A stretch of DNA of 64,000 nucleotides from an uncultured Bifidobacteriaceae bacterium (lineage in GTDB: Bacteria > Verrucomicrobiota > Verrucomicrobiia > Limisphaerales > UBA11358): positions 274,530 through 338,529 of the forward strand of contig CAZHIM010000001.1 in assembly GCA_964532525.1 (NCBI GenBank), read 5' to 3'. The translations under genes and the position numbers were made by a program. Each line of letters opens with the position of its first letter. Position 1 is the first letter of the stretch. This document shows, piece after piece, positions 1,848 to 46,580 of this stretch. The notes under the pieces were generated by a model, which saw only the letters and a program-made list of their open reading frames with translations, ran no database searches and was not told the DNA's origin.

Positions 1848-1915
1848 AAGGCCAACAAAAATGGCTGCCTGAATCAGGGCTTGCAATGTGTGCCTCCGCG
1901 GCATACATTTTAGAC

Positions 1916-2212
1916 ATGGATGCCATCAAAGAGCGAAAAGCCCAGCGACTGGTCGCCCGGGTTTCGGCGGCAGACAAGCAGCTTTTCCGGCGAGCGGCAA
2001 CGATTGAAGGACGCTCGATGGCAACTTTCGTGATCGTTCATGCTCGCGAAGTGGCCCGCCAGGTTATCCATCAGAGCAACCTGATCCAACTGGAGGCGGA
2101 TGATTCCGTTCGCTTCGTTGAAGCCCTGCTTGCGCCACCTCGTCAACCCACACCGGCCATGAGGGATTCCATCCGCGCTTATCGGGAATCGGTGAAAAGC
2201 GACTTGGATTAG
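1916..2212 (+). CDS. DUF1778 (TacA-like, RHH) type II antitoxin
   Basis: MDAIKERKAQRLVARVSAADKQLFRRAATIEGRSMATFVIVHAREVARQVIH..LEADDSVRFVEALLAPP matches the DUF1778 pattern. The track start at 1886 is an alternative. The ATG at 1916 gives the usual ~98-aa size. Confidence 0.75.
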   Translation: MDAIKERKAQRLVARVSAADKQLFRRAATIEGRSMATFVIVHAREVARQVIHQSNLIQLEADDSVRFVEALLAPPRQPTPAMRDSIRAYRESVKSDLD

Positions 2213-2379: not shown

Positions 2380-2919
2380 TCACGGTTTCAACTCAGCGCT
2401 GCAGATTTGATGGAAATGCTCTAATTCACTCATCGGAAGAAACATTCTGCGCTCATCCAGCGCCAGAAAGCCGTGTTCCCCATAGAACTCTCGCGCCTTG
2501 GCATCTTTAGGGTCGGTCACCACAATCACCGCGCCGACCTCCGCACTATGCCGCTCACACCGGCGCAGCGCGTCAATGAGCAGCAGTCGTCCCACCTGCT
2601 GTCCTTTCCACGCTATGTCCCTCGCCAAACGTCCAATCAGCGTTGCCCCCAGTTTAGGGTAACGCGGCAATTTCTTGGCTAACGCTTCTGGCAATTGTTG
2701 AACGACCACGGCAGTCTGAGAGAGCGTGTAGTAACCAGCAACCCGTCCCGGATCCGCCTCTGGAACCAGCACAAAGCACGCCGAAGCCCGTGCCTGCATC
2801 TCTTTACGCGCTCGCTTCTGCAGGAACTCCGTAAGCTCTGGAGACTCACAGGCAAACTCTTCCCGCCGATGTTTGCTCGCGTCAAGCTGCTCTATTCTGA
2901 ATCCCTGAGATTCGCTCAC
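2380..2919 (-). CDS. GNAT-family acetyltransferase toxin (TacT/AtaT-like)
   Basis: 179 aa with a GTG start. FACESPELTEFLQKRARKE...VAGYYTLSQTAVVVQQLPEALAKKLPRYPKLGATLIGRLARDIAWKGQQVGRLLLIDALRR...VIVVTDPKDAKAREFYGEHGFLAL is the typical DUF1778-partnered GNAT toxin pattern. Confidence 0.75.
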   Translation of the reverse strand: MSESQGFRIEQLDASKHRREEFACESPELTEFLQKRARKEMQARASACFVLVPEADPGRVAGYYTLSQTAVVVQQLPEALAKKLPRYPKLGATLIGRLARDIAWKGQQVGRLLLIDALRRCERHSAEVGAVIVVTDPKDAKAREFYGEHGFLALDERRMFLPMSELEHFHQICSAELKP

Positions 2920-3055
2920 CGGATTGGCAGGTTCTGTTCAAGGCTCACGGCTGCAGAATAGCCATCTCTTGTATGCGTGTTAATCCAAAACGCATATGTA
3001 TTACAATCTCAAAGCTAAATTCCCCTATCCCTCAACACCTTACGCATTTCTCGTT

Positions 3056-3369
3056 GGTTCTTCGCTGTTTTCAGTGGAATAGCTAAAACGAAGTTGCCTT
3101 GGAGTTCCCGAATTCTCGGGACATAACCCAAACAATTCCTCTTTGAAAAAGGTGAACTTCAAAGCTGGGATGGTTGAACAAAAAATAACACATACCCGCA
3201 TTGAAGCCCCGCAATGCGGGTATGTGGATTTTAGAATTCATCCGTCGATTTGTCGAGTCGATAATTCAATGAACCCTGCTTTCCACCTCCAAATAAGGCG
3301 GTTTAAATCTCACAGATTCCTGAGGCATTGGATTCGTAAAGTGTATTCCACTGAAAACAGCGAAGAACC
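3056..3369. mobile_element. MITE (non-autonomous transposon), 314 bp, with 26-bp perfect TIRs and an 8-bp TSD
   Basis: GGTTCTTCGCTGTTTTCAGTGGAATA at 3056-3081 is the exact reverse complement of 3344-3369. The direct repeat TTCTCGTT flanks both ends (3048-3055 and 3370-3377). The interior is AT-rich, has no credible ORF, and contains a 15-bp perfect stem (3189-3203 / 3212-3226). Confidence 0.8.
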
Positions 3370-3842
3370 TTCTCGTTAGCCGCTAACTTTGCGATTCCGC
3401 CAACCCTGCTAGAATCGCCCTGGCTGGGAAACCGCTCCCGCCACGATGAGCCATCATGCTCACATTCGAGTCCGGCCACGGACGGCTCGCCACTCGGCGC
3501 CCGCCCGCAAGAATTCTTTGTCCCGCCACCGCGCCACAGAAAGGCTGAAGGCTAAAAAAAACATAAAAACACCGCGCGCCATTTCCCTTTTCAGCCTTCA
3601 GCATTTAGCCTTTAGCATTTCCTCCGGAACCCCTCAATTTCGTTCCCGAAAATCTGCGAAAACCCCAACAAAAACCCCCATCGTCAACCCTCGTCAACCC
3701 TAAAAACTTTTTTGGCCCATCCCGCCCCCAATTCCGCGCCCAGTTTCCAAAACCCTGCGTTCCGAGCCCCGCATCCCCCCCGCCGTGGGCCCGAAATTAC
3801 GCGATTGAGTCTCCCGCAACTTCGCGTAGCATTTACGGCTCT

Positions 3843-6599
<2,757 letters not shown>

Positions 6600-6609
6600 C
6601 AGCCCCTAG

Positions 6610-6808
6610 CCCGGATATTTCACAGTTGCCTTGGCGGACGATGGCAACACCGGCGTAGCGCAGGTTTCCAAACCTGCCGCAAACCTGCCGTATCGCCGAT
6701 TTCCAAATCGGCAGGGTGTCGCCATTGCGTGGCGTCTGCGGATTGGGAAAACTATCGATACGCCAGGCTTGGAAGTCTGCACCACCGGATTGCCTATGAA
6801 CTATCCGG
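6610..6808 (+). repeat. TTCCAA-hairpin dispersed repeat element, copy 1
   Basis: Bounded by CCGGATATTTCAC (6610-) and ATGAACTATCCGG (-6808), which are inverted. The interior holds GCAGGTTTCCAAACCTGC and GCCGATTTCCAAATCGGC, then degenerate opposite-polarity modules ending in CTTGGAAGTCTGC. The element is shared with 38290-38493 and 46436-46580. Confidence 0.7.
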
Positions 6809-6862
6809 TCTAAGCTCGGCAGCGGCGCGAACGCATCCCGGCTCCCTCGCCGGGACCGCCGC

Positions 6863-27494: not shown

Positions 27495-27892
27495 TTTTGG
27501 AAGGGTGGAGAATCGCTCCCGGCGCAAGCCGGGGGAGGAAAGTCCGAACTCCACAGGGCACGACGCCGCGTAACCCAAGTCCGTACGATTGGGATACACG
27601 CGGGCGGCACGCCGGAATGCGTGCCGACGGACAGTGCCACAGAAAACAGACAGCCGGCCGGATCCTCACGGGTGCGGCCGGTGATGGTGAAAAGGTGCGG
27701 TAAGAGCGCACCGCGTGAAGCGCAAGCAACACGGCACGGAAAACCCCGTCGGGTGCAAGACCAAATAGGGAATCCCGGGGCGGCCCGCCCCAACCCCGCG
27801 AAAGCGGACGGATTCCGGGTACTGGTCGCTGAGACAAATGATTCTCTCCGTCGCAAGGCGCAGACAAAATTCGGCTTACAGCCCTTCCAAAA
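27495..27892 (+). ncRNA. rnpB: RNase P RNA, bacterial type A
   Basis: Universally conserved blocks are present: GGAGGAAAGTCCGAACTCCACAGGGCA, CAGTGCCACAGAAAACA, GGTGAAAAGGTGCGGTAAGAGCGCACCG, CAAGACCAAATAGGGAA and ACAAAATTCGGCTTACAG. The P1 stem is TTTTGGAAGGG (27495-27505) / CCCTTCCAAAA (27882-27892). Track ORFs over this region are spurious. Confidence 0.92.
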
Positions 27893-27901
27893 CCACTTCC
27901 C

Positions 27902-38195: not shown

Positions 38196-38289
38196 AATCG
38201 AATAGTCTTGAAAACCCCGGAGAGAATCAAGGGCTTTGCACCGCGCGCATTGAATCTCCAGATGCGACGAGGTGCGTCCCCCTGCCCGA

Positions 38290-38493
38290 GCCCGGATATT
38301 TCATGGCTGCTCCGACGGGCGCGGGCAAAACCGGCGTGGCGCAGGTTTCCCAACCTGCTGTATCGCCGATTTCCAAATCGGCACGCCATCGCAAGGTCGA
38401 GGGCATTGGAATTAGAGATGGCCTGTGGGTTTGGAAACCTACGATACAGCACACTTGGAAGTTTGCGGTACGGGTTTGACTATGAAATATCCG
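38290..38493 (+). repeat. TTCCAA-hairpin dispersed repeat element, copy 2 (most complete)
   Basis: The TIRs are CGGATATTTCAT (38292-38303) and ATGAAATATCCG (38482-38493). The four internal hairpin modules are GCAGGTTTCCCAACCTGC, GCCGATTTCCAAATCGGC, GGGTTTGGAAACC and CACTTGGAAGTTTGCGGTAC. Confidence 0.75.
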
Positions 38494-38495
38494 CT

Positions 38496-39782
38496 CTACG
38501 CCTTCCACACCTGGCCGGGCTTCGTTTGAATGCCCGCCAGCGCGTTGCGCGTGTCCACAATGCACGGCACCCAATCCGCCAGTTCCTGGTAATTCACGGT
38601 CTGATGGTTCGTGGCCACGATCACGGCGTCGAAGCCCGCGACGGTCGCGCGGTCCCAGCCGATGGACCGCGTGCCGGCCCAGTGCGGATGTTCGCGCGTG
38701 GGCCGGATGACGGGCACATAGGGATCGTAATAAGCCACCTCGGCGCCGCGTTCCTTGAGCAGGTCCAGCAACACGTAGCTGGGCGATTCGCGCTCGTCGT
38801 CCACGTTCGGCTTGTAGGCCAGGCCCAGAACCAGCACGCGGCTGCCGTTGACGGCCTTGCGGCGGGCGTTGAGGGCCTCGGTCGTGCGATTGATGACGAA
38901 CTGCGGCATGGCCGTGTTGATTTCGCCGGCCAGCTCGATGAAGCGCGTGTTTTGCGAATATTCGCGCGCCTTCCACGTCAGGTAAAACGGATCAATGGGA
39001 ATGCAATGGCCGCCCAGCCCCGGCCCGGGATAAAACGGCATGAAGCCGAACGGCTTGGTCTTCGCCGCGCGGATCACCTCCCACACGTCAATGTCCATGG
39101 CCTGATAAACCACCTTGAGCTCGTTGATGAGCGCGATGTTGACGCTGCGAAAAATGTTTTCCAGCAGCTTGGTGGCTTCGGCCACGCGGCACGACGACAC
39201 CGGCACGACGGTCTGGATGGCCCGGCCGTAGAGCGCCGTGGCGCGTTCGAGGCAGGCGGGCGTCAAGCCGCCCACGACCTTGGGAATCGCCGCCACCTTG
39301 CTGTCCGGATTGGCGGGATCCTCGCGCTCGGGCGAAAAGGCCAGATGAAAATCCACCCCCGCTTTCAGCCCGGAACCCGCCTCCAACACGCCGCGCAAAT
39401 CTTCATCCGTGGTGCCGGGATAGGTGGTGGATTCGAGGACCACGAGCGTGCCCTTTTGCAGGAACGGCGCCACGCTCCGGCCGGTGTCGAGAATGTACGA
39501 AATATCCGGCTCGCGATTCTTGTTGAGCGGCGTGGGCACACAAATGATCACCGCCTCCACCTCCCGCACGCGGCTGAAATCGGCCGAGGCGGTGAACCGG
39601 CCGGCGTGGACCTGCTCGGCCAGGGCGGCGGATTCGATGTGCTTGATGTAACTGCGGCCGGCATTCAGCGCGGCGACTTTCGCCGGGTCAATGTCCAGCC
39701 CCAGCACGAAGGTGTCCGAGCGCGCAAACTGGAGGGACAGCGGCAGGCCGACGTAACCGAGACCGACAATGGCGATTTTCAT
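38496..39782 (-). CDS. Nucleotide-sugar 6-dehydrogenase (UDP-glucose/GDP-mannose dehydrogenase family, WbpA/TviB-like)
   Basis: The Rossmann motif is MKIAIVGLGYVGLPLSLQFA. The catalytic Cys context is PGPGLGGHCIPIDP. The 428-aa length fits the UDP-GlcNAc/ManNAc dehydrogenase subgroup. Confidence 0.85.
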   Translation of the reverse strand: MKIAIVGLGYVGLPLSLQFARSDTFVLGLDIDPAKVAALNAGRSYIKHIESAALAEQVHAGRFTASADFSRVREVEAVIICVPTPLNKNREPDISYILDTGRSVAPFLQKGTLVVLESTTYPGTTDEDLRGVLEAGSGLKAGVDFHLAFSPEREDPANPDSKVAAIPKVVGGLTPACLERATALYGRAIQTVVPVSSCRVAEATKLLENIFRSVNIALINELKVVYQAMDIDVWEVIRAAKTKPFGFMPFYPGPGLGGHCIPIDPFYLTWKAREYSQNTRFIELAGEINTAMPQFVINRTTEALNARRKAVNGSRVLVLGLAYKPNVDDERESPSYVLLDLLKERGAEVAYYDPYVPVIRPTREHPHWAGTRSIGWDRATVAGFDAVIVATNHQTVNYQELADWVPCIVDTRNALAGIQTKPGQVWKA

Positions 39783-46435: not shown

Positions 46436-46580
46436 GTGGCGCAGGTTTCCAAACCTGCTGTATCGCCGATTTCCAAATCGGCTGGGCGTGGCCAGTGCGC
46501 GCGCGTCGAGACGACAGACCGCCTGCGGGTTTGGAAACCCGCGATCCGGCAGACTTGGAAGTCTGCGGTACGAGCATATA
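46436..46580 (+). repeat. TTCCAA-hairpin dispersed repeat element, copy 3 (outer TIRs degenerate)
   Basis: GGCGCAGGTTTCCAAACCTGCTGTATCGCCGATTTCCAAATCGGC...GGGTTTGGAAACCCGCGATCCGGCAGACTTGGAAGTCTGCGGTAC. Confidence 0.7.

Follow-up and report, generated by a model that had tools for sequence, protein, structure and literature searches.

Recent insertion of an ISL3-type MITE between leuS and a GNAT toxin gene of an uncultured peat bacterium

The 314-bp segment at positions 3056–3369 of the window (the whole 64,000-nucleotide stretch of DNA analyzed here) is very probably a MITE that was mobilized in trans by an ISL3-family DDE transposase, spread in a recent burst, and inserted at this site after the split from a relative of ∼90–94% nucleotide identity. 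The segment has the structure of a MITE, its site is empty in that relative, further copies of it lie at other sites, and other genomes contain ISL3 elements whose ends match and which are flanked by 8-bp duplications of their own.

The left terminal inverted repeat (TIR), GGTTCTTCGCTGTTTTCAGTGGAATA at 3056–3081, has its exact complement at 3344–3369 (26 of 26 positions match), and the 8-mer TTCTCGTT directly abuts both ends of the element, at 3048–3055 and 3370–3377. When up to 3 mismatches were allowed, the 26-mer had only two matches in the 64-kb window, against 0.00 expected from 100 shuffles, while the chance of a matching duplication for one fixed pair of 8-mers is 4^-8, or ∼1.5e-5. The termini begin GGTTCTTCG and the ends are of the GGTTCTTCGCTGTTTTCAGTGG type; a 20-mer inside the element near its right end reads GATTCCTGAGGCATTGGATT. 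The element has a GC content of 43.0%, compared with 62.7% across the window, and contains a central hairpin at 3189–3226 with 15 pairs and an 8-nt loop. The longest ORFs inside it (52–78 aa) have no Pfam match, and no tblastn similarity to the ISL3 transposase was found. An earlier, sequence-only reading of the window had described perfect 26-bp TIRs with an 8-bp duplication, an AT-rich body of 314 bp, the internal 15-bp hairpin and the lack of an encoded transposase, and the present analysis agrees with it on each of these points. The features of the element are as follows.

3048–3055, no strand: left copy of the target-site duplication, TTCTCGTT (direct-repeat match; the corresponding place in the relative L119 holds TTCCCGTT once).
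3056–3081, plus strand: left TIR, 26 nt, the presumed binding and cleavage site of an ISL3 transposase (0–2 mismatches to the ends of 1.3-kb ISL3 elements; 16 of 26 positions shared with the ISTfe1 TIRs).
3082–3343, no strand: non-coding interior, 262 bp, of low GC content (no similarity to IS or transposase sequences; no Rfam and no Pfam match).
3179–3226, minus strand: 15-bp stem with 8-nt loop followed by TTATTTTTTG on the minus strand, resembling an intrinsic terminator, with a weaker T-run on the plus strand (consensus scan only; stem present in the centroid fold).
3228–3256, minus strand: putative promoter-like site, TCGACA-17-TAAAAT (10 of 12 positions), directly upstream of the hairpin (consensus scan).
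3344–3369, minus strand: right TIR, 26 nt (inverted-repeat match).
3370–3377, no strand: right copy of the target-site duplication, TTCTCGTT (direct-repeat match; comparison with L119).

The element lies in a divergent intergenic region, with the gene for a GNAT (TacT-like) toxin on its left (179 aa; 2380–2919, minus strand) and leuS on its right (3843–6599, plus strand), the same neighbors that had been named from the sequence. The flanking genes were used in exact-protein look-ups, and these, together with their 90%-identity cluster mates, recovered the contig L119, which shares its JGI sample with a filled copy and has the same gene order at 90–94% nucleotide identity. The left flank of the window aligns up to L119 position 5434 and the right flank aligns from position 5427. 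At this point L119 reads ...CACTTTATGCA TTCCCGTT AGCCGCTAACTTTGCG..., with a single 8-mer and no element, and the window reads TTCTCGTT, 314 bp, TTCTCGTT; the reconstructed empty junction of the window is ACGCATTTCTCGTTAGCCGCTAAC. The search for an empty site in relatives, proposed in the sequence-only reading, was thus successful. As the pair consists of a filled and an empty site whose flanks overlap by exactly one 8-mer, the insertion with its 8-bp duplication postdates the split from L119. Precise excision in L119 is formally possible and less parsimonious than insertion, and mobility is demonstrated either way.

The alignment with L119 also contains a second insertion in the window, at 2244–2421. 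It is ∼178 bp long with CTA on both sides, and includes a long internal palindrome (TTTTTGGCTTTTGGC...GCTAAAAGCCAAAAA) with an MFE of −73 kcal/mol. This insertion lies between tacA and the GNAT gene, which converge, and puts new sequence in place of the final ∼10 toxin codons, with a change from an ending in ...MSELVEREAKGWNA (stop) to one in ...MSELEHFHQICSAELKP (stop). No other copies of it were found in the contigs compared, and it was therefore rejected as a multi-copy MITE. The TacA-like antitoxin gene (PF08681, 1e-18; 1886–2212, plus strand) and the GNAT toxin gene (2380–2919, minus strand) are convergent and not co-transcribed; in L119 the 3′ ends of the antitoxin gene (4475–4771, plus strand) and the toxin gene (4768–5274, minus strand) overlap tail-to-tail by 4 nt. 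DUF1778/GNAT toxin-antitoxin pairs are normally arranged as antitoxin-then-toxin operons, and the convergent arrangement is unusual.

Further copies of the MITE were found in peat metagenomes, where a scan with an interior 20-mer returned 11 stretches, all of them at contig ends. One of these, L129, was rejected as a chance 20-mer match (38/78 identity, 47% GC) and dropped, and stretches representing the same locus from different samples were merged before flanks were counted. The left end of the element (78–312 nt, 99–100% identical) adjoins at least 8 different flanks: the window (=L131), L124, L125 (=L133), L126, L127 (=L132), L128, L130 and L134. The flanks consist of DNA with 61–66% GC and have other repeats in common with the window. 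All copies are intergenic, most of them a few hundred bases upstream of a gene that is transcribed away from the element. The contigs of the other seven copies end inside the element, such that only one side of their duplications can be read, and neither a second copy nor a partner IS was found within the 64-kb window. The occurrence of further copies at 99–100% identity in at least 8 distinct flanks agrees with the sequence-only reading, as does the recency of the insertion, to which the near-identical copies, the perfect TIRs and duplication, and the empty site in L119 all point.

The presence of the MITE accounts for the interruption of assemblies of this lineage between leuS and the toxin gene. 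In ERZ27250145, a MEGAHIT assembly with k = 141, the contig on the left runs to 3196 and the one on the right begins at 3230; both breakpoints fall within one base of k−1 to k nt inward from 3056 and 3369, the offset that a de Bruijn graph gives for a repeat bounded at precisely these two positions. Contigs also end inside the element in five further assemblies (ERZ27249945, ERZ27249831, 3300014199, 3300042090 and 3300014658), and an independent JGI assembly (L001/L120) spans the entire filled site at 100% identity.

The exact 22-nt terminus of the element was present in at least 112 stretches, and in fact more, of species-representative genomes. Among the matches listed, nearly all carriers were Verrucomicrobiota MAGs (Opitutaceae, Chthoniobacterales, Limisphaerales and Verrucomicrobiales), plus a few Victivallales. 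Pairing of left and right ends among these same listed matches gave 43 elements of 114–529 bp, 749–840 bp, 1322–1355 bp, 2.4 kb and 5 kb, and the flanking 8-mers of the comparable pairs in this set, 1.3-kb copies included, were identical at all eight positions in 17 of 42 cases and at six or more in 29 of 42. The elements of 1.32–1.36 kb have ends with 0–2 mismatches to the 26-mer of the MITE, and carry the gene for a 418-aa protein, which takes up nearly all of the sequence from one TIR to the other: the left TIR is followed by 18–30 nt and an ATG, and the stop codon overlaps the right TIR. This protein matches PF01610 (DDE_Tnp_ISL3) at 6.8e-60, PF13542 (HTH_Tnp_ISL3) with 28.2 bits (cutoff 27.4) and the NCBIfam model NF033550, “ISL3 family transposase”, with 268.5 bits (cutoff 180), while its match to the ISL3 zinc ribbon, PF14690, falls slightly under the cutoff (23.4 bits against 25.5); a solved structure was not found for it by sequence. 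Judged by these profile matches, the 1.3-kb elements are ISL3-family insertion sequences.

The closest named elements in PLSDB are ISAtc1-3 and ISTfe1, ISL3 elements of Acidithiobacillus with ∼39% amino acid identity to the Verrucomicrobiota transposase. ISTfe1 is 1,302 bp long, has 26-nt TIRs (GGCTCTTCG...AGTGGGTAG) that are identical to the MITE TIR at 16 of 26 positions, and is flanked on both sides by TAAAAGAT, a perfect 8-bp duplication. These elements and the candidate partner IS are alike in their length of ∼1.3 kb, in 26-nt TIRs with GGYTCTTCG and AGTGG blocks, in a single transposase ORF and in a perfect A+T-rich 8-bp duplication; unlike the element in the window, which has no gene, ISTfe1 and ISAtc1-3 are autonomous. 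The resemblance of the GGYTCTT-type termini and the 8-bp duplication to ISL3 ends, suggested in the earlier reading, is therefore substantiated by an IS of the ISL3 family with matching ends and by the common design of ISTfe1.

The family of this transposase is intact and very large: at E≤1e-100 it comprises 2,391 clusters, most of them found on stand-alone contigs of 1.3–2 kb. Identical transposases occur on 15–17 contigs with differing flanks, which indicates that the ISL3 IS is active in nature. Across the family, perfect duplications are 72% A+T, in genomes of ∼58% GC. Many unrelated short elements (114–840 bp, ∼23 interior clusters) are bounded by the same 22-nt terminus across the Verrucomicrobiota MAG loci L006–L117, and some genomes hold several of them (e.g. 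CAWJTA01, with L024, L037, L058, L066 and L069). Two MAGs labelled Bifidobacteriaceae (L057 and L084) also carry the terminus, probably through mislabelling or contamination. Among the copies of one transposase, P0013 (L135–L144), many belong to an IS variant with TGGCAACA next to one end and the reverse complement of this sequence, TGTTGCCA, next to the other. This pattern could have arisen through insertion at a target that is palindromic or repeated, or artefactually, during assembly of the short IS contigs.

Given the match between its ends and those of the IS, the MITE would have been mobilized in trans by that ISL3 transposase. In the mechanism we propose, an ISL3 DDE transposase supplied in trans would bind both 26-bp TIRs and excise or copy the element, which would then be integrated into an A+T-rich target through cuts staggered by 8 bp; their repair would produce the TTCTCGTT duplication. 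The insertion would belong to a recent burst, known from at least 8 copies that are nearly identical, with the MITE landing preferentially near a rare, lineage-specific repeat, Y (described below).

The terminal 26–32 nt are the only part of the element in common with other elements, based on 112 TIR-bearing loci. The 262-bp interior has no blastn or tblastn similarity to IS or transposase sequences, and the IS is too compact, with almost no non-coding DNA to donate; we therefore rejected an origin by internal deletion, and the element is not a simple deletion derivative. A set of 37 short TIR-bounded elements fell into ∼23 unrelated interior clusters in which the element of the window was a singleton, so that an interior common to other short elements was rejected as well. 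Searches of plasmid and phage collections gave no match to the interior, and an origin from either was not retained. Short elements elsewhere track the GC content of their hosts, whereas the element of the window lies 20 GC points under its host.

The sequence-only reading had also predicted an active partner transposase elsewhere in the genome. Members of the partner family are abundant in Verrucomicrobiota, but ∼237 kb of same-lineage contigs and the samples of the window yielded none. Neither an intact nor a degraded ISL3 transposase was detected in the window or those ∼237 kb, and the four transposase clusters that were traced to contigs all came from other samples. The MITE could accordingly be a genuine ISL3-type element whose autonomous partner is gone from the genome, either as the fossil of a finished burst or as the product of a transient or horizontally delivered transposase. 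This is a somewhat unlikely reading that draws on the missing transposase in both the contigs and the samples, and on the GC content of the element (43%, against 63% for the host), which suggests a foreign origin. However, copies that are 99–100% identical, with perfect TIRs and duplication, imply very recent activity. Absence from binned contigs is also weak evidence, since multi-copy ISs are routinely lost from short-read MAGs and most of the transposase matches lie on stand-alone 1.3–2 kb contigs. We infer that a partner was present in this genome at the time of insertion.

The insertion context of the MITE is itself repetitive. The flanks of L124, L125/133, L126 and L130 are mutually homologous and, when reversed, are homologous to the window flanks across the insertion point, which defines the following feature.

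3005–3530 (3005–3055 plus 3378–3530), plus strand: dispersed repeat Y, the insertion context of the element, with the core CCGTTAGCCGCTAACT and then a promoter-like TTGCGA...TGCTAGAAT at 3389–3415.

In all copies the core of Y reads ...TTACGCATTTCCCGTTAGCCGCTAACT and includes the palindrome GTTAGC-N-GCTAAC. Four copies continue past the core with the extended −10 promoter motif TTGCG...TGCTA(G/C/A)AAT, whose −10 varies only at its third position (TAGAAT, TACAAT or TAAAAT), the least constrained one. Some copies have a further module, seen in the window at 3628–3728, with a tandem CGTCAACCCT and with AAAACCCC runs. Y may be the promoter of a regulon, a leader or a mobile module in its own right. 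The copies lie upstream of unrelated genes, namely leuS, prfC-like, DUF2911-like, GH-like and FAD-oxidase-like genes (window, L124, L125/133, L126 and L130). The RNA fold downstream of the promoter-like block could be compared in three sequences only, and these contained no compensatory changes. No Y core was found in the other loci from Verrucomicrobiota, which total 742 kb; within ∼135 kb of non-redundant sequence from the same lineage the core was clear only beside MITE insertions or at the orthologous empty site, if a single marginal match with 2 mismatches in L134 is disregarded.

Of the eight MITE insertions, five are no more than ∼130 nt away from a Y core, and L125/133, L126 and L130 have theirs at the same Y boundary. 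Using a conservative estimate of Y density, the probability of five in eight falling this close is ∼1e-8; counting intergenic DNA only, we estimate, by judgement and not by computation, a value of <1e-3. The MITE parts of these loci are 99–100% identical while the Y parts are 80–90% identical, indicating independent recent insertions and not duplications of a MITE-plus-Y block. The simplest reading suggested by the association is a regional target preference, the alternative being selection for upstream positions. Our tentative proposal, which we hold with less than even confidence, is that the MITE and its transposase may be guided to the lineage-restricted, promoter-bearing Y and not to random A+T-rich sites.

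Other repeats are present in the window. Another dispersed intergenic family occurs at 6591–6830, 38285–38501 and 46450–46566 (69–73% identity within the window), and also in L126 and L130 near their MITE copies. Upstream of leuS, at 3535–3625, there is a block of inverted and tandem repeats (AAAGGCTGAAGGCT / AGCCTTCAGCATTTAGCCTTTAGC) that is missing or different in L119, where the alignment has a gap; it may be a small indel or a repeat. The only Rfam match in the window is RNase P RNA class A (RF00010, 213 bits) at 27497–27894 on the plus strand.

With respect to the genes on either side, the element lies ∼136 nt upstream of the start codon of the GNAT toxin, and its left end is ∼72 nt upstream of the promoter-like site of that gene (−35 at 2983–2978, overlapping a palindrome at 2972–2996), so that the core promoter of the toxin was probably left intact. 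The predicted transcription starts are near 2948 for the toxin gene and near 3422 for leuS. On the other side, the element is ∼40 nt upstream of the conserved promoter-like −10 in repeat Y, which probably serves leuS. Its right end divides Y, with CTTACGCATTTC, the upstream half of the core, cut off from the promoter-like block and the palindrome GTTAGCCGCTAAC; from this split we infer that the insertion may have a regulatory effect, possibly on the expression of leuS.

A rival reading is that the element is a domesticated regulatory cassette, retained in front of genes for a strong terminator at its center, and possibly a promoter-like site, that would insulate or modulate nearby promoters (the Y modules); its distribution relative to Y would then reflect selection instead of targeting. 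The terminator-like hairpin with its T-run beside a promoter-like site would fit such a cassette, as would the exclusively intergenic copies, most of them upstream of genes, and the single orientation relative to Y in four of the five Y-associated copies. We nevertheless consider it improbable. The hairpin and promoter-like site are consensus matches only, in numbers near the shuffled expectation: two promoter-like sites were found by the consensus scan in the region against 1.0 expected, so that TCGACA-17-TAAAAT may be due to chance, and any function of the two motifs would be speculative. Moreover, near-identical copies signify recent spread and not long-term retention, and four orientations of five are not significant. 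Correia elements of Neisseria are short, TIR-bounded intergenic repeats beside genes and can carry promoter or terminator activity; they have a TA duplication and a different transposase family. The element of the window is like them short, TIR-bounded and intergenic, and any regulatory activity of its own would be putative.

The whole element folds as a single long hairpin closed by the TIRs, with z = −11.8, and the 15-bp central stem is retained in its centroid fold; stability of this order is a trivial outcome of 26-bp TIRs plus one hairpin and is expected for a MITE. No Rfam match was obtained for the element at gathering or permissive thresholds, and a known RNA family was rejected on this basis. 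An immobile structured RNA gene or an ancient relic fixed at the site, which the very stable fold might otherwise suggest, is refuted by the empty site in L119 and by at least 8 copies in unrelated contexts, and is at odds with the matching IS ends and the lack of an Rfam family; the scenario that the sequence-only reading had set against a MITE, i.e. no other copies, no IS with matching ends and an identical sequence in every relative, fails in each of its three parts. Equally negligible is a chimeric join that mimics an insertion: assemblies often break inside the element, but L001/L120 spans the filled site at 100% identity and the geometry of flanks, TIRs and duplication is exact.

The MITE mobilized by an ISL3 transposase, as preferred here, has close counterparts. 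In Microcystis aeruginosa PCC 7806, a 187-nt non-coding ISL3-associated MITE has inverted termini that start GGCTCTTCG, 8-nt direct repeats and a stem-loop, and was assigned to ISL3 transposases on the strength of ISL3 copies in that genome with matching termini and 8-nt repeats (PMC11448079). Both elements are short and non-coding, with 8-nt repeats and a stem-loop, and start GGCTCTTCG there and GGTTCTTCG here. They differ in that the host is a member of the Cyanobacteria in one case and probably, to judge by where the termini occur, of the Verrucomicrobiota in the other, and in that the present element has a length of 314 bp, perfect 26-nt TIRs, an unrelated low-GC interior and an ISL3 partner that was not located in the same genome. 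In Methanosarcina acetivorans, an ISMac21-related MITE of 179 bp is present in 6 copies, with an ISL3-family IS as its potential autonomous partner (PMC3852290); the last columns of its table entry, 22 and 7, are apparently the lengths of the inverted and direct repeats, in uncertain order (PMC3852290). The host in that case is an archaeon, and the likeness to the element of the window is by table listing and not by sequence. ISL3-derived MITEs have thus already been published (PMC11448079, PMC3852290), and the element described here is another MITE of the ISL3 type.

On its own this is a routine mobile element, for which a well-documented pair of filled and empty sites is now available from a peat bacterium that is uncultured and probably belongs to the Verrucomicrobiota. 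The element also draws attention to an ISL3 subgroup of great abundance, with transposase clusters in the thousands, a 22-nt terminus conserved across Verrucomicrobiota and many unrelated short derivatives. Targeting, if the association with Y does reflect it, would be unusual within the ISL3 family and would offer a route to coordinated regulatory change: an ISL3 element directed to particular regions would be systematically rewiring the upstream regions of a set of genes, with a strong terminator as its cargo.
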